A DNA stretch of 64,000 nt, taken from the NCBI RefSeq assembly GCF_050920415.1, contig NZ_CP169309.1; one strand, 5' to 3'. The position numbers and the translations under genes were made by a program. The number at the start of each line of letters is the position of its first letter. Within the stretch, counting starts at the first letter, position 1. The notes beneath the pieces were generated by a model. That model ran no database searches and had not been told where the DNA came from. It worked only from the letters and a program-made list of their open reading frames with translations. Of this stretch, positions 29,273 to 42,131 are shown in pieces. Source of the stretch: Escherichia coli (lineage in GTDB: Bacteria; Pseudomonadota; Gammaproteobacteria; Enterobacterales; Enterobacteriaceae).

Positions 29273-31435
29273 TTATACCGTCTCCAGCCGGGCGTAAGCC
29301 GCCACCAGCCATTTAATACCCTGGCCCTGGAATGCCACCTGCAAACGGCTATGCTCACCGCTGCCTTCCATATTGACGATGGTGCCTTCACCAAACTTGG
29401 CGTGGCGTACGCGCTGGCCGAGCTTGTAGCCGCTGTCGTTCTCGACCATCGGCGTACCCATCCGTTGATGGCTGACCGGGCGGCTTACCGTAGCGCGTAA
29501 ACGCACCTCTTCCACACACTCTTCCGGCAGCTCACCAATAAAGCGCGACGGGCGATGGTAAACCTCTTTGCCATACAGACGGCGGGTTTCCGCGTAGGTC
29601 AGTGTCAGTTTCTGCATCGCGCGGGTTACGCCAACGTAGGCCAGACGGCGTTCTTCTTCCAGACGCCCGCCTTCATCCAGCGACATCTGGCTTGGGAACA
29701 TGCCCTCTTCCATACCAACAATAAACACCTGCGGGAATTCCAGACCTTTCGCCGAGTGTAGCGTCATCAGCTGTACCGCATCCTGCCAGGTATCCGCCTG
29801 CCCTTCACCTGCTTCCAGTGCCGCATGGGAGAGGAACGCCTGCAGCGGCATTAAATCTTCGTCTTCTTCGTTGTAGCTGAACTGGCGCGTTGCCGTCACC
29901 AGTTCCTCTAAGTTTTCGATACGCGTCTGGCCTTTTTCGCCCTTCTCCTGCTCGTACATGGTGCGCAGGCCGGAGTCTTTAATTACCCGGTCAGTCTGTA
30001 CATGCAGCGGCATATCGGCAGTTTCTTGCGCTAAGGCGTCGATCAGTTCCATAAACCGTTGCAAAGCGCTGGCAGCACGCCCGGCGAGCGCTTTTTCCTG
30101 CAATAATTCGCGGCACGCCTGCCAGAGTGTTAACTGGCGATCGCGCGATGTCTGACGTACCACGTCCAGCGTCCGGTCACCAATACCCCGCGTTGGCGTA
30201 TTCACCACGCGCTCAAAGGCCGCGTCGTCGTTACGGTTGGCAATCAGGCGCAGATACGAGAGCGCATCTTTGATTTCCTGGCGTTCGAAGAAGCGCATCC
30301 CGCCATAAATACGGTACGGCATACTGGCTTGTAATAACGCCTCTTCCAGCACGCGCGACTGGGCGTTGCTGCGATAGAGAATGGCGCACTCGGCGAGCGC
30401 CCCGCCCTTGTCCTGCCAGGTCTTGATGCGGTTAACCACAAAACGCGCTTCGTCGAGTTCGTTAAAAGCGCAATAGAGGGAAATCGGCTCACCGTCCGCG
30501 CCATCGGTCCACAACTTTTTACCCAAACGCCCGTTGTTGTTTTCAATCAGGGCGTTCGCCGCGCTCAGGATATTGCTGGTAGAGCGGTAGTTTTGCTCCA
30601 GACGGATAGTTTCGGCACCGGGGAAATCATTGAGGAAACGCTGAATATTCTCTACCTGCGCCCCACGCCAGCCGTAGATTGACTGGTCGTCATCGCCAAC
30701 AATCATCACTTTGCCAGTATCGCCCGCCAGCAGGCGGATCCACGCGTACTGAATGTTGTTGGTATCCTGGAATTCGTCCACCAGGATATTGGTAAAACGT
30801 TCGCGGTAGTGTTGCAGGATATGCGGCTTGTTAAGCCACAGTTCGTGGGCGCGTAGCAGTAGTTCAGCGAAGTCCACCAGGCCCGCGCGGTCACACGCTT
30901 CCTGATACGCCTGGTACACCTTCTGCCAGGTCTGCTCCACCGGATTACCGTAGCTTTGAATATGATGCGGACGCAGCCCTTCATCTTTCTGGCTGTTGAT
31001 GTACCACATTGCCTGGCGCGGCGGCCACTGCTTCTCGTCGAGGTTCATGGCTTTGATCAGACGCTTAAGCAGGCGCAGCTGGTCTTCGCTGTCGAGGATC
31101 TGGAAATCCTGCGGCAGGTTGGCGTCCATATGGTGCGCACGCAGCAGACGGTGTGCCAGCCCGTGGAAAGTGCCGACCCACATACCGCCCTGGCTGGTAC
31201 CCATCAGTTGCCCGATACGATGGCGCATTTCCGCCGCCGCTTTGTTGGTAAATGTCACCGCCATAATCGAGTACGGCGAGCAGTTTTCCACGCTCATCAG
31301 CCAGGCGATACGATGCACCAGTACGCGCGTCTTACCACTGCCCGCGCCCGCCAGCACCAAAAGGTTGCTGCGTGGCGCGGCCACCGCTTCGCGCTGTTTG
31401 TCATTAAGGCTGTCGAGCAGGTAAGAAACGTCCAT
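29273..31435 (-). CDS. uvrD: UvrD DNA helicase II, 720 aa
   Basis: Track frame extends to 31621; start set at MDVSYLLDSLNDKQREAVAAPRSNLLVLAGAGSGKTRV... Confidence 0.95.
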   Translation of the reverse strand: MDVSYLLDSLNDKQREAVAAPRSNLLVLAGAGSGKTRVLVHRIAWLMSVENCSPYSIMAVTFTNKAAAEMRHRIGQLMGTSQGGMWVGTFHGLAHRLLRAHHMDANLPQDFQILDSEDQLRLLKRLIKAMNLDEKQWPPRQAMWYINSQKDEGLRPHHIQSYGNPVEQTWQKVYQAYQEACDRAGLVDFAELLLRAHELWLNKPHILQHYRERFTNILVDEFQDTNNIQYAWIRLLAGDTGKVMIVGDDDQSIYGWRGAQVENIQRFLNDFPGAETIRLEQNYRSTSNILSAANALIENNNGRLGKKLWTDGADGEPISLYCAFNELDEARFVVNRIKTWQDKGGALAECAILYRSNAQSRVLEEALLQASMPYRIYGGMRFFERQEIKDALSYLRLIANRNDDAAFERVVNTPTRGIGDRTLDVVRQTSRDRQLTLWQACRELLQEKALAGRAASALQRFMELIDALAQETADMPLHVQTDRVIKDSGLRTMYEQEKGEKGQTRIENLEELVTATRQFSYNEEDEDLMPLQAFLSHAALEAGEGQADTWQDAVQLMTLHSAKGLEFPQVFIVGMEEGMFPSQMSLDEGGRLEEERRLAYVGVTRAMQKLTLTYAETRRLYGKEVYHRPSRFIGELPEECVEEVRLRATVSRPVSHQRMGTPMVENDSGYKLGQRVRHAKFGEGTIVNMEGSGEHSRLQVAFQGQGIKWLVAAYARLETV

Positions 31436-31493
31436 TGGCACCGCCGCGTAAAAATAGGTTGGGCGGAGAAGCGCAACGCCCTCCGCCAAAAAG

Positions 31494-31509
31494 CTGGGTA
31501 TATATACAG
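31494..31509 (-). promoter_or_regulatory. LexA (SOS) box upstream of uvrD
   Basis: Minus-strand CTGTATATATACCCAG, matching CTGT-N8-ACAG consensus, about 60 bp upstream of uvrD ATG. Confidence 0.7.
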
Positions 31510-31518
31510 ATTTGCTGA

Positions 31519-32235
31519 TTATATCAGCGAGGTCAGAGATGCCAACCGGGAAATTTCCAGATGCGGGAGTAAACGGCTGTCCCAGGTTTGCATCAGATCG
31601 CCATTTTCCGGTCTGATCCAACAGGCCTGCATTCCGCTGCGAATTGCCCCACCCACGTCAGTGGTGAGATCGTCCCCGACATGTAAGATCTCGCCGATCG
31701 GCACGTTGAGTTTTTCCGCCGCCAGGAAGTACATATCGCTGAACGGTTTTGAGCGCCCGTGCGGGCCAGCACGCAGCACAAACTCAAAATAATCCCCCAA
31801 ACCAAACAGCTCCGGCTGGGCGTTACCGTTGGTGATCGCCACCAGCGGCCATTTCTTCGCCAGCTGTTTTAAGGTGTCGTGGGTTTGCTGCGGAACGTCG
31901 ATCCGGCTACGCCATTTGGCAAAGTTGATCATTGCCGCGTGTGCGCCTGCACTGGCTTCTTCTGCGCTCAGCCCGGCGTCAAGCATCGCTTGTTCTATTG
32001 AGCGAAAACGCCAGCGCGTCACATCATGATAAATCTCGGGTTCCGCTTCCCGTACCGCCTGACGCAGACGTTGCAGATCTTCATTCTGGAAGCTGCGCAG
32101 CGCCGGATGGTAATTTTGCACAAAGGTAAGCGCCTCCTGCTCAGTGCGCAAAATCACCGGACGGTTATCGTAAAGGGTATCATCCAGGTCAAAGGTGAGC
32201 GCCGAGATGCGCCCCAAAGGCCGGTAAAAACGCAT
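31519..32235 (-). CDS. yigB: YigB HAD-family FMN phosphatase, 238 aa
   Basis: [28 protein letters not shown]... Confidence 0.9.
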
Positions 32236-33131
32236 TATTTCCCCCGTTTGGCGCGTGGATGCGCCGCATCGTACACCGAGGCAAGGTGTTGAAAATCAAG
32301 ATGAGTATAGATTTGCGTGGTAGAAAGGTTCGCATGACCCAGCAGCTCCTGCACACCACGAAGATCACCGCTCGACTCCAGCATATGCGTAGCGAACGAG
32401 TGACGTAATTTATGCGGGTGAACGTGATTATTCAGCCCTTGTTTGATGCCCCATTCGGCAAAGCGTTTCTGCACATTACGCGCGGAGATACGCTTGCCCA
32501 GTTTCGACAGAAAAAGCGCGTCGTCTTCGCTACCAAACAGGTCGCGCAAATCAAGCCAGTGCTCAATCCACGCCACAGCGTTGCGACCAATCGGCAGGCG
32601 GCGCTCTTTGCTGCCTTTCCCCATCACCCACACTTCACCGGACTCCAGGTCGAGGTGTTTGATATCAAGCCCCACCAGTTCGGAAAGACGCAGACCCGCG
32701 CCGTACATCACTTCCAGCATTGCCCGATCGCGCACGGCGAGGGGATCGTTGATATCAATATCCAGCAGCCGATTTATATCATCGACGTCGATATTTTTCG
32801 GCAGATGACGCGGCGCTTTCGGTGCCGAAACACCTTTCGCCGGGTTGGCTTTAAGTTCGTTCTGGCTGACCAACCAGTCAAAAAAGCTACGTAGCGCAGA
32901 GAGGCGTAATGCGAGGCTTGCCGCGCCAAGCCCTTTACGGCGACTGCGTACAGCGAAATTGCGCACCATCGCCGCATCACATTGCTGCCAGCTTTGCAGG
33001 CCGTTTTCGCTGGCAAAATTGATGATCGCCTCAAGTTGGCGCTGGTAGTTAAGCAGGGTTATCGGGCTAAGCTGGCGCTCCACGCTCAGATAACGTAGGT
33101 AGCGTTCTACATCGGTGTGTAAATCGGTCAT
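32235..33131 (-). CDS. xerC: XerC tyrosine site-specific recombinase, 298 aa
   Basis: [35 protein letters not shown]...; R-H-R-Y catalytic region. Confidence 0.95.
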
Positions 33132-33835
33132 ACGCGTTCAATCCAACGCTCCAGAAGCTCCGGCAACATCAGCGCAATTTCATGAAGTAACTGCGTTCCC
33201 TGCCCTTGTTGATAGTGACTGGCATCGCGGCTGGTGAACAGCACGACACCCAAATCAGCATCGCTTCCCAGCATCGACATCGCCACCGATCCCACCGCTT
33301 TCGCTTCCGGTAGCACCACCAGCAGCTCCGGTCCGTTAAGCGGCCCAAGATAGTGCTGTTCCTGCCCCAGACGCTGAATACGCAGCGGTTCGAAAGACTG
33401 ACGGCTTAATGCGAGATGAGTGTAGTTTGACGGCGCACCTAAGCGCCAGCGATCCGGAAACAGGCGCAGACTCGCACCTGCCAGGCCGAGATCGCGCGCC
33501 CAGCGGTGAAAACGCATCAGCATATCGTCGAGACTGCTGGCGGCGGTGAGACTACGCTGCAGGTAAAGTAAGCGATAGAACAAGCCTTCGTTGGCGATAG
33601 CCTGTTCCATCAACAGCGCCATGTTCTCTTCCAGAACATGAATATGATGACGTGCGCGGGCCATGTGCCACTCGACCAACGAAACGGTGCCGCGTACCGG
33701 ATGCGGCACACGTATCGCTTCTACTGCGCGCGCATTGCGGATAAAAAACTCAGGATTTTTAATCAGATAATCGACAACCGCCCGGTCATCTAGCTCCGTG
33801 AGTGTTTCCTGCAGTTCTTCCCCTGGTTGCTTCAT
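33128..33835 (-). CDS. yigA: YigA (DUF484) protein, 235 aa
   Basis: [31 protein letters not shown]...; overlaps xerC start and dapF stop by 4 nt. Confidence 0.9.
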
Positions 33836-34656
33836 AGATGAATAAATCCGTCGTAGACATGTACCGCCGGCCCCGTCATATATAAGGGGTGACCCGGACC
33901 TTTCCAGGCGATATCAAGACGACCGCCGGGGAGTTCCACGCGTACTTCTTCGGCCAGCAAACCTTGCTGAATCCCTACCGCCACCGCCGCACACGCGCCG
34001 CTGCCGCAGGCCTGGGTTTCTCCTGCCCCACGCTCATAAACGCGTAAACGAATATGTTCGCGTTTAACCACTTGCATAAAACCGATATTGGCGCGCTCCG
34101 GAAAACGTTCGTGGCTTTCCAGAACAGGACCAAGCGTTTCTACCGCCGCAGTATCGACATCATCAACCTGAATCACGCAGTGCGGATTTCCCATCGACAC
34201 CACGCCGCATAAGATTGTCTGCTCGGCGGCGCGCATAATATAGGTCTTTTCCGCTTTGTTAGCGCGAAATGGCACGGCAGAAGGTTCGAAGTTGGGTTCG
34301 CCCATATTTACGCACACCAGATCGTCATCGGTGACGGTCAGAACCATCCGCCCGTTGGCAGTACTGACGCGGATATCGCGCTTATTGGTCAGCCCTTTCA
34401 GACGCACAAAACGGGCAAAGCAGCGCGCGCCGTTGCCGCACTGCGCTACTTCACTGCCATCAGCATTGAAAATGCGATAGTGAAAATCCAGTTCCGGATC
34501 ATACGGTGGCTCAACCACCAGCAGTTGGTCAAACCCTATCCCCAGGTGCCGATCCGCCAGGCGACGAATCAGTTCTGGTGAAAAAAAGACATTCTGCGTT
34601 ACCGCGTCGACGACCATAAAATCGTTGCCAAGGCCATGCATTTTCGAGAACTGCAT
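33832..34656 (-). CDS. dapF: Diaminopimelate epimerase, 274 aa
   Basis: [25 protein letters not shown]...; start set at second ATG of track frame. Confidence 0.95.
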
Positions 34657-34692
34657 CATTTACTCCAATCACGCGGGTACAGAAACTGACTT

Positions 34693-34896
34693 TTAGTAAT
34701 TCACCTGGGATGGACCATCGCCAGTGGCGCGATCGTTTTTATCCGGCACCGTGGATTGCGTTTGCGTCTCTACCGGTTTGGTCGGTGGCGGTGCGTTTTT
34801 ATCTGCAGGCGGGAAATAGAGCGGACCTTTCAGACCGCAGCCCGTCAGGCTGAAGAGAGTAAGTAATACAGTGAGTGCCTTAAACACGTTTTTCAT
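34693..34896 (-). CDS. yifL: YifL small lipoprotein, 67 aa
   Basis: MKNVFKALTVLLTLFSLTGCGLKGPLYFPP... with lipobox LTGC. Confidence 0.85.
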   Translation of the reverse strand: MKNVFKALTVLLTLFSLTGCGLKGPLYFPPADKNAPPPTKPVETQTQSTVPDKNDRATGDGPSQVNY

Positions 34897-35084
34897 TATG
34901 GATTGCCTGTAAAGTTCATCGCTTTCTGCTTTCTATCATCGCAGGAGAAGACGTAAAAGCAAGCGTTTAGCGACTCTTTATGAAGTCTGAAAAATGAGGA
35001 ATTGCTGCGAGTATAACGCTTACACGTGGGGATTTATGTTTTGCTGGTAGTTTCGTGATCGGCACCTCGCGCCAGGATGGCTTT

Positions 35085-37112
35085 ATGCACTATCGCAATG
35101 TGGTTTGTTTGTTGTCTTTTTTAGTTCCGTCAGCGTGGGGATGCTCGCTCGGTGAACCTGATCATAATATTTACCAGAAACAGGGAAAAGGCGTGGTATA
35201 CCTGCGCCCTAATGAAGAGACAAATCTTTCGTTACCGGAAGTAAATTACCAGCGACTGCGTCGTTTACCTGATTTATTCATTGCTCCTGACACCCAGGAC
35301 GATGGGGAAAAAGAACCGCCGTTAAACGACCTTACCACCGATTATATTGATCAGGGCGCATGGGCCTGGTATCCAAATTATGCTTACTTTAGCGATGGCC
35401 GTTTTGTCATTTATGCGGGCAAGATTGTACAAAATCCATCTGGTTATCCACCGGTCGATGTAGCCTCGTTCCATTCATGGGGCGATTTTGCCGTCGATAA
35501 AAACAGCATTTATTACAAAGGCCAACGGACAGATGAAAATGGCGGCAAGCAACGCGTCGATGAAAAAACGCTGCGCAAAGTAGGATTAGGTAGCCGTTGG
35601 ATGCCTGATCGGCTGGGATTGGTGCTACGTGACGCGCATTTTCTTTATATCGATGGGCACCGTTTTGATAACCCAGAGAGTTTTTCCGTGATCGCGCAAA
35701 AATCCTGGGGTCAACAAGGGAAATTCGCTTCAACGTTTTTTCCCTGCATTGCCTACCCCTTTGGCCCGTGGGATATGCTTACCCGCACACGAACAAAGTT
35801 GCTGATCAATGGAGAGCAACTGGATGCCGATCCGGACAATTTTTCTGTCGTTCGCTGGATGCCCGGCACCCTGTTTAGCTGGCGTGATAAACACGGCGAG
35901 CATCGTAAAGTCATTGATCAGGTTCGTTTGGCAAGGAATGAAGATATATCCCGGCAATGTGACAACTTTACGCTGTTAGAAAAAAAGGTGTTCTGGCGCA
36001 AGGGGCCAGATTGTGAGCAGGAAGAATTACCCAGTCTCGACCCGGAGCAGTTTCACCCGATCAGTGACATCGTGGCGCAGTATCAGGACAAGTTGTATGC
36101 AATCAGTAAGACCCCCTTCGGTGAAAATCAGTTGGAGATCATCACCCTGGATAACCCGAATCTGATCATCAATAAACGTTTTAATGCAGGAAGGCATCAT
36201 GGCTATTTACTCACCCGATCAACAAATTGGGACGGACATGAGAAAGACGGTTTACAGGTGTTTGAATCCGTTGGCCCACTGATACTGCTGGACTACCGTG
36301 TGCCGAATGAAGCAGATGCACACCGTGGCAATAACCCGCATTACAAAAAATGGTTTGCTCGCGACGATCGTTACGTTTATGCATTCGATGGTGCGCAGCT
36401 TTGGCGTTACCCTACGCAATATCCCAAAGCGGCACGTATCAAAGCCGCTAAAGACGACTGGCTGAACGTCAGCCTTAGCCAGTTGGACGGTGAGATAATG
36501 AAAGATGGCTCATTTACTCCCACTGGCATCAAGCACACATCCTCTTTAAAACCCGCCAAGGCATACGAAGATGGGGACAATGAATCTTCATTTATCGTAA
36601 ATAAATCGGGAGTAGGCTGGCGAAAAGCGCTTTCACCCGACCTGCAATGGAGTGAGTGGCATTACCTGGAAGGCATTGATCCAAAAAAGTTTCATCTGAT
36701 TACCGAACGTATTGCACAGTACAAAAACCAACTCTACGTCGTCAGGCGCTCGCATTTTGGAGAAGATCGGCTCGAAATCATAGAGTTGGAGTCATCTTTG
36801 CCCATCAAAAATAAACCGATAAATACGGGCAAGGAGCGTCATTACTTTCTGCAAAGTACCCGACAAAAACAGGATGTGCAGGTATTCACCAGCAGCGGTG
36901 CGCTGATAGCAACGGAGCGCTTTGCTTATGACGATAGCTATGTCTACACCTGGATTGACGATCAGCTTTATCGCACACCCTCCCCCTGCCCAGCGAAAAC
37001 ATACGTCAGAGAAAAGAATGTCCGTGAAATTCATAACAGCGACATTATTATTCCGGTGACGGAGGAATCGTGCCGGAACGCAGCAGCAGACGGGCAAACT
37101 TTGAAGCCCTGA
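35085..37112 (+). CDS. Large secreted DKNYY-repeat family protein, 675 aa from ATG (685 from upstream GTG)
   Basis: Signal peptide MHYRNVVCLLSFLVPSAWGC; motif DKNSIYYKGQR; two internally duplicated segments (FHPISDIVAQYQDKLY...FGENQLEIITLD / FHLITERIAQYKNQLY...FGEDRLEIIELE); AGGA 9 nt before ATG 35085. Confidence 0.7.
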   Translation: MHYRNVVCLLSFLVPSAWGCSLGEPDHNIYQKQGKGVVYLRPNEETNLSLPEVNYQRLRRLPDLFIAPDTQDDGEKEPPLNDLTTDYIDQGAWAWYPNYAYFSDGRFVIYAGKIVQNPSGYPPVDVASFHSWGDFAVDKNSIYYKGQRTDENGGKQRVDEKTLRKVGLGSRWMPDRLGLVLRDAHFLYIDGHRFDNPESFSVIAQKSWGQQGKFASTFFPCIAYPFGPWDMLTRTRTKLLINGEQLDADPDNFSVVRWMPGTLFSWRDKHGEHRKVIDQVRLARNEDISRQCDNFTLLEKKVFWRKGPDCEQEELPSLDPEQFHPISDIVAQYQDKLYAISKTPFGENQLEIITLDNPNLIINKRFNAGRHHGYLLTRSTNWDGHEKDGLQVFESVGPLILLDYRVPNEADAHRGNNPHYKKWFARDDRYVYAFDGAQLWRYPTQYPKAARIKAAKDDWLNVSLSQLDGEIMKDGSFTPTGIKHTSSLKPAKAYEDGDNESSFIVNKSGVGWRKALSPDLQWSEWHYLEGIDPKKFHLITERIAQYKNQLYVVRRSHFGEDRLEIIELESSLPIKNKPINTGKERHYFLQSTRQKQDVQVFTSSGALIATERFAYDDSYVYTWIDDQLYRTPSPCPAKTYVREKNVREIHNSDIIIPVTEESCRNAAADGQTLKP

Positions 37113-37159
37113 CACCATGCCGCTATACTGCCGCCATCACTTAAAAACAGGATACAACA

Positions 37160-37480
37160 ATGAACGACAGTGAATTTCATCGCCTGGCTGATCAACTGTG
37201 GCTGACCATTGAAGAGCGTCTGGACGACTGGGATGGCGACAGCGATATCGACTGCGAAATCAACGGCGGTGTGCTGACCATTACCTTTGAAAATGGCAGC
37301 AAAATCATTATCAACCGTCAGGAACCGCTGCACCAGGTTTGGCTGGCAACCAAACAGGGCGGCTACCATTTTGATCTGAAAGGTGACGAATGGATTTGCG
37401 ACCGTAGCGGTGAAACCTTCTGGGATTTGCTGGAACAGGCGGCAACGCAGCAGGCCGGTGAAACAGTCAGTTTCCGCTAA
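37160..37480 (+). CDS. cyaY: CyaY frataxin homologue, 106 aa
   Basis: [43 protein letters not shown]... Confidence 0.95.
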
Positions 37481-37519
37481 GATTGCATGCCGGATAAGCC
37501 TCGCTGTCCGGCACGCTCA

Positions 37520-40066
37520 TCACGAAAAATACTGCTGTAATAGCGGCGTGTCGTGATCCTGATTGGCAGGCGGCATGTTACCGATAGATTTGGTGCGGAA
37601 CGGAATCACCTGTTCACGACCATCAACCTTCACAATCTGATAGAACTGCGGCAGGTTGAAGTTGATGAAGCTTGAGCCGTAGGTAAAACGGTCGTGCGAT
37701 GACGAGTAGAAGCGACTGACGTCACGCACCAGCTCCTCTTTGCTGCCTTCGCAGTGGTGATACACCTCAACCCGGTTGCTTTCGTCGAGAATGTAGATAT
37801 TAAAGCCATTCTCGTCTTGCGTTTCTTCGAAGAAGAACTGGATGATCCCTTCGCTGGCAAAGCCGTCCACCACCGCCGGTAATTTGACGTGATTGGTTTC
37901 AACCTGCACTGACAGGCCGTGCAGTTTGTTATGCGAAATAGCGCCATAAAACTCGATGGCATTTTCCAGTTTCTGTACCGATACATTCAGCCGTTCGAAG
38001 AACAACCCCCAGGTTTGACCAGAAACGCGCAGCGCCTTGAAGCGCCCTGTTTCCTGACGGGTGCTGGACAGACGCAGTTCAATACACTCAGAAACCAGTT
38101 GCTGCACGCGAGTACGGATTAATCCGCGCAGATGCTGGCTGTAGCAGAAGACTTCCACGCTATCTGGCGGTGCGGCGTCCTGATGCATTTTGCCGAGAAT
38201 AGTTTTCAGGGCTTCGATCATCGATTGCTCGCCGTTGAAGTGCAGCGTACGCACTTCGTTCCACGAGTTGCGGTACAGCAGGTCCACGCTACCTACCAGG
38301 CAATTTTGGTTTTCGCCAAAGCTGAAGACGTCCAGCTTACGGAAATCAAAATGCACCACCTGATTGCGGAACGCAGCTGTCGGGTCATATTCCAGGTTAA
38401 CGATAATCGCCAGATGGCGAATTTCACACGGGCTGTAGAGCGCTTTTGGCGTCGGTGCAGGCAGGCGCAGCGGGAAATGGTGCGACACATCGGCGACCAT
38501 CTCCTGCAACTTAGGCAAATCGACAATGCCGTTGCCTTTAATATACAAGCGGGTGCGCGAGGTCAGCAGGCCGTTAAACCATGCCCACGCCACCAGTTTA
38601 TTAAGGTAACGGTTATATTCCAGCGGCTGATGGCTGATGATCGACTCAATATTTGGCGCGCGGTTATACAGATACCAACCTGAACGGTTAGCCCGGCCCG
38701 GCGGCACATAAATAAAGGTCAGATTCGGTTCCGAGAGATCGGGCGAAATCTGCGGGTTTACCAGCGTCACTTTACCTGGCAATGCTTCAAACGCGGCGTA
38801 CAGTTTACGCGTCAGCACGCCGATATCCTGCGGACTGGCAGAGACGCTAAGGTTATTGCGACGCGCAAAGCGGATCAGATTGCGGTAGCTCTGCATCATT
38901 GCATCGAGCAGTTCGTTGTGCGCCTCGCGCACCTGATCAATCTTCCAGTTAGCGCGGTTATCGAGCATTGCCAGACGAGCATCGTCCCATTCCCACTCTT
39001 TCACTAACTGGGTTAGCACTTCACGACGCCAGCCTACACAGGCGCGTTCACGGCTGAGTTTTTCGCACACTTTTAAATAGAAGCAGCGACGCACTAAATC
39101 CAGACGGGTGAAATCTTCAATCGCCGTCAGGTACTCAGTAACACGCTCCAGCATCATGCAGTACGGATCGAGACCAAACGATACAATCTCGCCGTCGTGC
39201 AAACGCTGTTTGATATCTTTCGCCAGCAGACGTGGGTTCGGGTATTCCCAGGAATAGGCTTCCAGCAGTAGTGTTTTCAGCACCGCTTTGTATGGGGAAT
39301 CGATACTCTTATAGAGCTGCCAAAGGCTGGCACCAAAGTACTCTTCGGCAGAAAGTGAGCTTAAGCCGCCGAGATCCAGCCATTCATTAGGAGTAAGCAC
39401 GCCCTGCGCGTAAAGCGTCATCACATAGTCGTCGTAATGCTCTTCTTCGTCACACGGCACCATATTCCACAGAATACGTTTACCGGCGAGACGCACGGCG
39501 GTACGATAAAATTCGTCAAGCAGCAGTATATGCTGGGTGGAGCCACAATCTTCGCCCCCCAGGCTGCCGCTTTCATTATGACGGAAGCGATTTTCATCAA
39601 TCAGGAAGAAGCTAACTTCCACGCCCAGCGAGGCGGCCCAGCTTTCCAGCAGGCTGCATTTACGTTGTAGTAACTGGCGCTCTTCGCTATCAAGCCAGGA
39701 TTGATGACAGACCCAGATATCCAGGTCAGAGGAACAACTTTGCCCTACGGACGAGGTGCTGCCCATGGTGTATACACCAGTAATTGGAAGCTCACCTTTC
39801 GGCGGATCCTGTACTGACATTCCACGATACAGTTCAAGCTCGTTCAGGTAGTGGCGTTGAGTTTCATCAGGCGTGTAAAGGCAAATGCCTTTGGGAACGT
39901 TACCATCAAGGTAGCCCGGCATTAGCGGATGGTGATAGTGCAACAATGTCGGCAGTAGACTGTAGACCTGTTGGAATGCAGGCCCCATAGCAGCAAGCGC
40001 GCGATCCACACGCAATTGATTTATGGCATCCAGTCTCTGTTTCAGAGTCTCAATATAGAGGTACAA
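37520..40066 (-). CDS. cyaA: Adenylate cyclase, 848 aa, TTG start
   Basis: [35 protein letters not shown]...; first codon is TTG as known for cyaA. Confidence 0.95.
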
Positions 40067-40452
40067 GACGTATCGCCTGATTTGCTACCCGTCATGACTG
40101 TGATTCCGCCAACATCAACGGTAACACGCGGCATTCGGGATATTTCGTATGTCAAAGGTAACCGTTACCACTTTTCGCGCCTGGTTTTTTTAGTTTCACG
40201 ACGAAAAAATGGTCTAAAACGTGATCAATTTAACACCTTGCTGATTGACCGTAAAGAAAGATGCGCTACATACAAGTGTAGCACCGTTTATTCTCTGTAA
40301 ATTCCTTATTACGACGGCGTGAAACGCCTGTCAGGATCCACTGCCAGACCTCATTTTTCGGTTTGCGCAGGCGTCTACGTTTCACCACAACACTGACATC
40401 GCTCTGGCAAGGATGTTAGGATGGACCACGGATGATAATGACGGTAACAAGC

Positions 40453-41394
40453 ATGTTAGACAATGTTTTAAGAATTGCCACACGCCAAAGCCCACTTGCA
40501 CTCTGGCAGGCACACTATGTCAAAGACAAGTTGATGGCGAGCCATCCGGGCCTGGTCGTTGAACTGGTACCGATGGTGACGCGCGGCGATGTGATTCTTG
40601 ATACGCCGCTGGCGAAAGTAGGCGGAAAAGGCTTATTTGTAAAAGAGCTGGAAGTCGCGCTCCTGGAGAATCGCGCCGATATCGCCGTACATTCAATGAA
40701 AGATGTGCCGGTTGAATTCCCGCAAGGTCTGGGGCTGGTCACTATTTGCGAGCGTGAAGATCCTCGCGATGCATTTGTGTCCAATAACTATGACAGTCTG
40801 GATGCGTTACCGGCAGGCAGTATCGTCGGGACGTCCAGTTTACGTCGCCAGTGCCAACTGGCTGAACGCCGCCCGGATCTGATTATCCGCTCCCTGCGCG
40901 GCAACGTCGGCACTCGCCTGAGCAAACTGGATAACGGCGAATACGATGCCATCATTCTTGCCGTAGCCGGACTAAAACGTTTAGGTCTGGAGTCACGCAT
41001 TCGCGCCGCGTTGCCACCCGAGATTTCTCTTCCGGCGGTAGGACAAGGTGCGGTCGGTATTGAATGCCGCCTTAATGATACTCGCACTCGCGAGCTGCTT
41101 GCCGCGCTGAATCACCACGAAACTGCACTGCGTGTTACCGCCGAACGCGCCATGAATACCCGTCTCGAAGGCGGATGTCAGGTGCCAATTGGTAGCTACG
41201 CCGAGCTTATTGATGGCGAAATCTGGCTGCGTGCGCTGGTCGGCGCGCCGGACGGTTCGCAGATTATTCGCGGTGAACGCCGCGGTGCGCCGCAAGATGC
41301 CGAACAAATGGGGATTTCGCTGGCAGAAGAGCTACTGAATAACGGCGCGCGCGAGATCCTTGCTGAAGTCTATAACGGAGACGCCCCGGCATGA
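40453..41394 (+). CDS. hemC: Porphobilinogen deaminase, 313 aa
   Basis: Track frame 40432..41394; start set at [27 protein letters not shown]... Confidence 0.9.
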
Positions 41395-42131
41395 GTATCC
41401 TGGTCACCCGCCCGTCTCCCGCAGGAGAAGAGTTAGTGAGCCGTCTGCGCACACTGGGGCAGGTGGCCTGGCATTTTCCGCTGATTGAGTTTTCTCCGGG
41501 TCGACAATTACCGCAACTTGCTGATCAACTGGCAGCGCTGGGAGAGAGCGATCTGTTGTTTACCCTCTCGCAACACGCGGTTGCTTTTGCCCAATCACAG
41601 CTGCATCAGCAAGATCGTAAATGGCCCCAACTACCTGATTATTTCGCCATTGGACGCACCACCGCGCTGGCACTACATACCGTAAGCGGACAGAAGATTC
41701 TCTACCCGCAGGATCGGGAAATCAGCGAAGTCTTGCTACAATTACCTGAATTACAAAATATTGCGGGCAAACGTGCGCTGATATTACGTGGCAATGGCGG
41801 TCGTGAGCTAATTGGGGATACCCTGACGGCGCGCGGCGCTGAAGTCACTTTTTGTGAATGTTATCAACGATGCGCAATCCATTACGATGGTGCAGAAGAA
41901 GCGATGCGCTGGCAATCCCGCGAGGTGACGACAGTCGTTGTTACCAGCGGTGAAATGTTACAGCAACTCTGGTCGCTGATCCCACAATGGTATCGTGAGC
42001 ACTGGTTACTACGCTGTCGACTTTTAGTCGTCAGTGAGCGTCTGGCGAAACTCGCCCGGGAACTGGGCTGGCAAGACATTAAGGTCGCCGATAACGCTGA
42101 CAACGATGCGCTTTTACGGGCATTACAATAA
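41391..42131 (+). CDS. hemD: Uroporphyrinogen-III synthase, 246 aa
   Basis: [34 protein letters not shown]...; overlaps hemC stop. Confidence 0.95.

Follow-up and report, generated by a model that had tools for sequence, protein, structure and literature searches.

The lptM–cyaY interval of Escherichia coli raises two linked questions: whether the 2-kb gene that occupies it in some strains was inserted there, and what the encoded protein does. The stretch analyzed here, termed the window, comprises 64,000 nucleotides of contig NZ_CP169309.1, and its numbering is used throughout. A first-pass annotation had described the gene as an insertion, relative to K-12, between yifL (lptM) and cyaY, and its product as a secreted DKNYY-repeat protein. 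The gene, its product and its site were compared with 5426 complete E. coli genomes and with other enterobacteria.

The gene and its flanks

An ORF scan of the window revealed an uninterrupted plus-strand frame that begins at a GTG (35055) or an ATG (35085), ends at 37112 and encodes 675 aa from the ATG. A Shine–Dalgarno sequence, AGGA, is located at 35074–35077 with a 7-nt spacing to the ATG, and PGAP places the start at the same codon in NZ_CP169399.1, the record of E. coli MFDS1022581. The product listed there, WP_001361096.1 ('hypothetical protein'), is 100% identical to that of the window. The reported 675-aa gene between yifL and cyaY is thus intact, and RefSeq and UniProt already list it, as uncharacterized. 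The features of the locus are compiled in Table 1. The divergent intergenic region upstream of the gene is near-identical in K-12, Nissle, 55989, E600003, and JA0072, as judged from the allele alignment. At the opposite end, the candidate cyaY promoter spans the stop codon of the gene and lies 31 nt upstream of cyaY. This stretch is near-invariant across K-12 and all alleles compared, and belongs to the 3' remnant that K-12 retains. An Rfam search over positions 30000–42000 found no RNA families.

Table 1. Coordinates of features at the lptM–cyaY locus of the window
Feature	Position	Strand	Basis or remark
lptM (yifL), divergent left neighbor	34693..34896	-	ORF and annotation in identical record
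Divergent intergenic region, 188 bp, with Shine–Dalgarno sequence	34897..35084	.	Kept in K-12
CDS of 675 aa, predicted DKNYY-like envelope protein	35085..37112	+	Stop codon 37110–37112
Predicted signal peptide, aa 1–19, with lipobox-like A-W-G-C; Cys20 at 35142–35144	35085..35144	+	Conserved Cys column
N-terminal domain, aa 21–290, degenerate DKNYY-type hairpin units	35145..35954	+	Motifs and AF2 model
Segment absent from K-12-type genomes, exactly 1800 bp	35236..37035	+	Junction mapped by alignment
C-module copy 1, aa 294–453	35964..36443	+	Orthologous to gene-1 C-module of two-gene strains
C-module copy 2, aa 498–642	36576..37010	+	Orthologous to C-module of periplasmic paralog, gene 2
Sigma-70-like promoter match TTGAAG-17-TATACT, candidate cyaY promoter	37101..37129	+	Consensus scan only
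cyaY, right neighbor	37160..37480	+	ORF and annotation in identical record

The K-12 spacer and the exchange of cassettes

The lptM–cyaY spacer of K-12 is short (462 bp), as the first-pass annotation had stated, but it is not an ancestral gene-free spacer. Alignment to the window revealed that it holds the 5' 151 nt of the gene joined directly to the 3' 77 nt. The remnant is further disabled: its codon 18 has become a stop (TGG>TGA), and a 1-nt deletion shifts the frame. PGAP labels it a 'DKNYY family protein' pseudogene. A GAA>AAA change is also present in K-12. Among the six alleles compared, a 6-bp deletion and several SNPs are specific to the window allele, and the K-12 5' remnant carries them too, which indicates that the K-12 scar derives from a window-type allele. 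The K-12 junction is found in 2485 of the 5426 complete E. coli genomes (about 46%).

The site is also occupied beyond E. coli. In Salmonella enterica, Atlantibacter, Pseudocitrobacter, E. albertii, Phytobacter, Citrobacter, and Klebsiella spallanzanii, a homolog likewise lies between lptM and cyaY. The gene is ancestral at this position in at least eight enterobacterial genera; in Superficieibacter only a 51-aa remnant was found. All of the syntenic loci are flanked by dapF, lptM, cyaY, and cyaA. The genes for a MocR regulator, an amidohydrolase, and MFS transporters in the additional 7 kb of the K. spallanzanii locus give no hint of function. Full-length orthologs of about 60% identity are present in Salmonella, E. 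albertii, and Pseudocitrobacter, and the presence of the long, 675-aa-type architecture in these three lineages shows that it is old. These comparisons indicate that the gene at lptM–cyaY predates the split of the Escherichia, Salmonella, Citrobacter, Klebsiella, and Atlantibacter lineages. A second array of paralogs is located at an unrelated site, fklB–ytfE.

Horizontal acquisition of the gene into an otherwise short yifL–cyaY spacer would be in keeping with its GC content, which at 46.8–49.2% is below the approximately 53–59% of the flanks, and with the rarity of the exact allele, found at ≥99.5% identity in only five of the 5426 genomes. Against this reading, the K-12 spacer is built from the two ends of the gene itself and bears disabling mutations, and the same site is filled across at least eight genera. 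Relative to an 87%-identical ortholog from another, sister Escherichia, moreover, the gene has a dS of 0.24, which fits the 0.23–0.54 of its flanks. No integrase or IS was detected at the window locus, and neither a target-site duplication nor terminal repeats bracket the gene. Searches of phage and plasmid collections matched only mislabeled chromosomal records or fragments, so carriage by a mobile element was rejected. Insertion is therefore extremely improbable; the scar made of gene ends and the cross-genus synteny essentially refute it, and the polarity proposed in the first-pass annotation is reversed. The gene is ancestral at lptM–cyaY and has been repeatedly lost, with the K-12 site representing a deletion scar and not an empty site.

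Within E. coli, how widely the gene is present depends on which part of it is followed. Remnants of the gene ends were detected in 5425 of the 5426 genomes, while homologs of the gene body, intact or not, occur in only 1588 (~29%), all at only 60–80% DNA identity. The N-domain of a second gene (gene 2) was found in 1409 genomes and a DUF3304 gene in 1667. The locus holds zero to four paralogs, most commonly a pair, gene 1 and gene 2. The forms encountered between lptM and cyaY are the scar of K-12-type genomes, two genes (Nissle, JA0072, and E600003), a DUF3304 gene with two genes (55989 and 268.2), four genes (CUVET24-IPD24), an IS1-disrupted version, and the single 675-aa gene of the window; an Escherichia sp. 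contains gene 1, gene 2, and a long form all together.

The divergence among these forms lies mainly in the gene body. About 75 nt at the start and about 140 nt at the end of the coding region are conserved between strains, as are the flanks. Strains with flanks that differ by 2% or less have bodies that differ by about 32% at the DNA level and about 40% at the protein level. In E600003, for example, the flanks differ from those of the window by 0–2% on the left and 0–4% on the right, while the encoded proteins are 61–63% identical to the window protein and the final 46 aa are identical. Conserved ends and near-identical flanks around a divergent body show that whole cassettes are swapped by recombination inside the conserved ends. 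Flank divergence was examined for a rise toward the locus, as would mark a linked balanced polymorphism, and showed no clear gradient. Between the window gene and Nissle gene 1, dN is 0.27 and dS is 1.9, compared with a flank dS of 0.13–0.48, and this dN is as large as that relative to Salmonella (0.29). Collectively, the lptM–cyaY locus behaves as an exchangeable cassette.

The selective regime bears on whether the gene is still functional. The comparison with the 87%-identical ortholog yields a dN/dS of 0.29, and the overall range for the gene is 0.14–0.29, compared with 0.006–0.05 in neighboring genes, which points to purifying but relaxed selection. These ratios and the length of the uninterrupted frames speak for a functional protein in the genomes that carry the gene. 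Decay is certainly common, as illustrated by the K-12 deletion, the IS1 insertion, frameshifts, the Shigella fragments, and the Superficieibacter remnant, and the window gene could by the same token be a functionless relic whose frame merely happens to have stayed open where loss has yet to occur. This reading is improbable, because a frame of 675 codons has stayed open across a dS of 0.24 at a dN/dS of 0.29, full-length orthologs persist at about 60% identity in three other lineages, and all five E. coli carriers of the allele are annotated as intact.

Architecture, family, and predicted export of the protein

The long protein combines parts of the two genes found in other strains. Its aa 1–480 are 60–63% identical to the gene-1 product of two-gene strains (~490 aa, with the same AWGC motif), and the C-terminal 180 aa of gene 2 (~440 aa) are 59–61% identical to aa 498–675; the two genes overlap by 4 nt at their stop and start codons. 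The internal duplication noted earlier is also evident, as aa 294–453 and aa 502–642 share 33% identity (E=1e-22). Copy 2 is more similar to aa 261–439 of gene 2 from Nissle and E600003 (59–61% identity) than to copy 1 (33%). The 675-aa protein therefore has the architecture of gene 1, a linker, and the C-terminal module of gene 2, and the internal repeat exists because the C-modules of gene 1 and gene 2 are paralogous. The two-gene allele of Nissle 1917 (WP_001443188.1 and WP_001014282.1) and that of 55989 share the site, the conserved ends, and the domains with the window. In contrast, the window carries a single fused gene that lacks the signal peptide and N-domain of gene 2, and, unlike 55989-type strains, it has no DUF3304 gene.

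An AF2 model of the protein is confident and all-beta, with hairpin repeats, a pLDDT of 84.7, and a pTM of 0.80. It has no relative of solved structure: a family-profile search of PDB sequences returned only a weak PQQ-propeller match (E=0.018). The beta-propeller envelope scaffolds BamB and TolB have in common with the predicted protein their all-beta repeats, a lipoprotein or periplasmic nature, and a presumed role in protein binding. Three cysteines, C221, C292, and C310, are conserved in the family alignment.

The assignment to the DKNYY family holds only indirectly. The motif DKNSIYYKG is present, as reported, at aa 138–146 (35496–35522), and it is the sole canonical unit. A regular expression for DKNYY-type units retrieved this motif together with DAHFLYIDG (aa 183), QDKLYAIS (aa 334), and DDRYVYAFD (aa 427); two more degenerate units, near aa 548 and 616, were recognized by eye and have no match to the expression. 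Half-units of the form xDPxxF occur at aa 124, 158, 248, 318, and 531. Direct comparison of the window protein with the Pfam profile PF13644 gave a non-significant i-Evalue of 1.4 over aa 101–146. None of 20 relatives reached E≤0.001 (best 0.027) or matched another Pfam family significantly, and gene 2 of Nissle scored 0.019. The NCBIfam search returned only a spurious NodC match (E=0.24). The link to the family is transitive. A family profile, which retrieves only 108 cluster representatives among 1.84 billion proteins, matches the cluster representative P0071 at 1.6e-50, and P0071 in turn matches PF13644 at 4.5e-22, 8e-8, and 3e-4. BLASTP aligns the window protein with P0071 at E=2e-35 over 580 columns, with homology extending over about 520 residues, and the best-conserved region is the N-terminal domain. 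Since the window protein is homologous to P0071 and P0071 matches PF13644, the protein belongs to the DKNYY superfamily as a divergent branch and not as a Pfam-defined member; PGAP and UniProt name its close relatives 'DKNYY family protein'. Like the Pfam family, it has units of the D-K-N-x-hydrophobic-Y-Y-x-G type and no assigned function. The enterobacterial branch differs in having an N-domain with one or two C-modules, in forming pairs of a lipoprotein and a periplasmic protein, and in occupying a fixed chromosomal site. In agreement with the earlier statement that DKNYY proteins have no assigned function, a literature search found DKNYY only as an incidental table entry, nothing for PF13644, and nothing relevant on a lipoprotein of yifL–cyaY.

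The N-terminus has the features expected for export. The sequence MHYRNVVCLLSFLVPSAWG, with predicted cleavage before Cys at position 20, comprises a basic n-region and a hydrophobic core, consistent with the signal peptide proposed earlier. The AWGC motif is indeed non-canonical: it fails PROSITE PS51257 because of the Trp at position -2, and it is also compatible with a signal-peptidase-I site, yet the lipobox-like motif is conserved. Conservation of the Cys reaches at least 90% in the family alignment, and 13 distant homologs satisfy PS51257 with their Cys in the same column as Cys20. The Cys-less paralogs have clear signal-peptidase-I signals, as exemplified by gene 2, whose signal MNGQIITVALILLGNSFLTPPVQA, with predicted cleavage before Ile, is of the classical signal-peptidase-I type. 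Relatives in UniProt and AFDB are named 'Lipoprotein'. With moderate confidence, the protein is predicted to be exported and lipidated on Cys20, and the residue at +2, Ser and not Asp, would let the Lol pathway carry it to the outer membrane. A predicted outer-membrane lipoprotein is the best reading of its localization.

Possible roles in the envelope

Pfam, NCBIfam, PADLOC, PHROGs, the PDB, gene neighborhoods, and the literature assign no function to this protein. PADLOC returned only Csn2 (E=0.027), which was taken as chance, PHROGs gave no match, and no catalytic motif is recognizable in the protein. The genomic contexts of the distant homologs P0071, P0079, P0098, and P0076 contain no recurrent partner genes. 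An Rhs array lies ~4 kb from P0076 on the opposite strand and is not convincing as a link.

Considering the locus and the protein together, it is somewhat probable that the gene is an ancestral, exchangeable cassette gene encoding a predicted lipoprotein of a divergent DKNYY-superfamily branch, possibly a protective binder. In the proposed mechanism, the protein would be exported, lipidated at Cys20, and Lol-sorted to the outer membrane, where it would act as a non-enzymatic binding module. The products of gene 1 and gene 2 would normally form a complex of a lipoprotein and its periplasmic partner; the fusion of the gene-2 module to gene 1 suggests such a complex with moderate confidence. The protein might then bind incoming antagonists of the envelope, for instance a T6SS effector, a bacteriocin, or a phage component, and neutralize or exclude them. 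The diversity of the cassettes, the paralog arrays, the frequent loss, and the orphan DUF3304 gene at the same site favor a protective binder, and the specific proposal, a binding or protective protein that is anchored in the outer membrane and has no enzymatic activity, is tentative and of low confidence. DUF3304 corresponds to Tli1, a family whose members confer immunity to the T6SS effector Tle1 (PMC13133936), and the DUF3304 gene of the locus, absent from the window, has a moderate Pfam match (E=1.5e-4). The likeness to Tli immunity proteins, which act against T6SS Tle phospholipases, lies in the predicted envelope location and in the orphan, polymorphic, and arrayed genes, and a DUF3304 gene shares the lptM–cyaY locus in many E. 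coli. The window protein differs in having no sequence or fold similarity to Tli, no adjacent cognate effector, and a much larger size, and the role is purely conjectural. Known immunity proteins are usually much smaller than 675 aa. No T6SS, effector, VgrG/PAAR, toxin, or phage genes adjoin the gene in the window or in the related loci examined. The importance of the protein is also questioned by the fact that most E. coli, K-12 included, live without the gene.

The allelic divergence, cassette exchange, and frequent pseudogenization are equally reminiscent of a surface antigen. The protein could be an outer-membrane lipoprotein displayed on the cell surface, for example an adhesin, an antigen, or a phage or colicin receptor, whose diversity and repeated loss result from host immunity or phage predation and not from a role in protective binding; the lipobox-like signal with a +2 residue other than Asp and the predicted beta-repeat fold, of a kind often serving binding, would agree with this. 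We consider such a role unlikely, since the gene-2 paralogs carry ordinary periplasmic signals, which suggests a periplasmic working compartment, and since NCBIfam, Pfam, and PDB profile searches linked it to no known adhesin and to no export signal of surface lipoproteins. The genomic position hints at yet another role, as an accessory factor of envelope biogenesis or the cell wall tied to lptM (LptD maturation) and dapF (peptidoglycan precursor). The stable, divergently transcribed placement beside lptM across genera and the conserved cysteines of a predicted outer-membrane lipoprotein are in line with it. Its probability is nevertheless small: the gene is dispensable in most E. coli, its non-synonymous rate is about 10–40 times that of its neighbors, unlike housekeeping assembly factors, and the second paralog array resides at the unrelated fklB–ytfE site.

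Extending the protective-binder reading, both lptM–cyaY and fklB–ytfE might be hotspots of cassette exchange that store DKNYY-like lipoprotein/periplasmic pairs, an unrecognized class of envelope immunity or exclusion proteins, beside orphan Tli1-type genes. The alleles would then represent an ancient trans-specific polymorphism under antagonist-driven selection, and the 675-aa form would be a 'Rosetta-stone' fusion of the partners. This broader scenario is distinctly unlikely as a whole.

The lptM–cyaY locus is notable as a core-genome site with near-identical flanks at which the cassettes of E. coli are as divergent from each other as they are from those of Salmonella. These cassettes supply zero to four paralogs of an uncharacterized envelope family for which no structure has been solved. 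Since the K-12 reference carries the scar, pangenome analyses and 'insertion' calls made against K-12 misread this locus. Should the protective-binder reading be true, the proteins would constitute a new family in the repertoire of interbacterial and phage defense, and this would be the first function for the DKNYY superfamily.

Mosaic divergence and the conserved 3′ end

At the sequence level, the comparison of the 675-aa DKNYY-like gene with its 87%-identical orthologue L017 from another Escherichia is mosaic. The dS values reach 0.63–0.87 (dN 0.19) over residues 1–150 (window 35085–35534), whereas they are only 0.04–0.23 in the remainder of the gene. This contrast indicates a recombination breakpoint inside the N-domain. 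At the opposite end, a sigma-70-like promoter match was kept, nearly invariant, in every allele compared and in the K-12 scar, the remnant of an 1800-bp internal deletion. Deletions always spare the 3′ end of the gene, and this candidate promoter may be the reason.

Mobile elements and neighbouring genes at the lptM–cyaY locus

An IS1A element interrupting gene 1, the lipoprotein-type paralogue of two-gene strains, represents a further independent inactivation route. In a metagenomic contig, a TnpB-type fragment is flanked by lptM and an array comprising a 135-aa ORF and three paralogues, hinting that elements of the IS200/IS605 type also reach this hotspot. In Klebsiella spallanzanii, an insertion of approximately 7 kb separates the DKNYY-like pair from cyaY. 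This unrelated cargo encodes an amidohydrolase and a MocR-type regulator, together with two MFS efflux-like proteins.

In many E. coli, lptM is separated from the DKNYY-like genes by a DUF3304 gene that has no effector in its vicinity. DUF3304 is the Tli1-type T6SS immunity family (PMC13133936), and the copy at the lptM locus appears to be a TM-anchored protein and not a lipoprotein. DNA similar to this gene occurs in 1667 of the 5426 complete E. coli genomes, part of these matches lying at other loci.

Two MAG contigs labelled Collinsella sp. and Aerococcus sp. (L025 and L029) encode proteins of 57–64% identity within an enterobacterial lptM–cyaY locus. Their labels most likely reflect binning contamination rather than true Gram-positive homologues.

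Features of the lptM–cyaY and fklB–ytfE loci (L-numbers, related loci from other genomes)
Feature	Position	Source	Remark
Promoter match TTGAAG-17-TATACT	window 37101–37129	E. coli	overlaps stop codon; 31 nt upstream of cyaY
IS1A	L015:380–1077	E. coli 13P484A	
Cas12f1-like TNB (TnpB-type) fragment	L014:1240–1557	metagenomic enterobacterial contig	
DUF3304 gene	L005:1353–1907	E. coli 55989	
DUF3304 gene	L003:2147–2701		further copy
Cargo	L028:10746–18144	K. spallanzanii	
fklB–ytfE array	L031:6320–10690	Escherichia whittamii	
fklB–ytfE array	L030	Pseudocitrobacter vendiensis	

A second array between fklB and ytfE

Distant paralogues of the family (29–36% identity) form a second tandem array between fklB and ytfE, a core site unrelated to lptM–cyaY. 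Two paralogues were confirmed by tblastn, and the homology of a third, adjoining ORF is doubtful (19% identity in the multiple alignment). There are therefore at least two hotspots in the chromosome where the DKNYY-like family resides.
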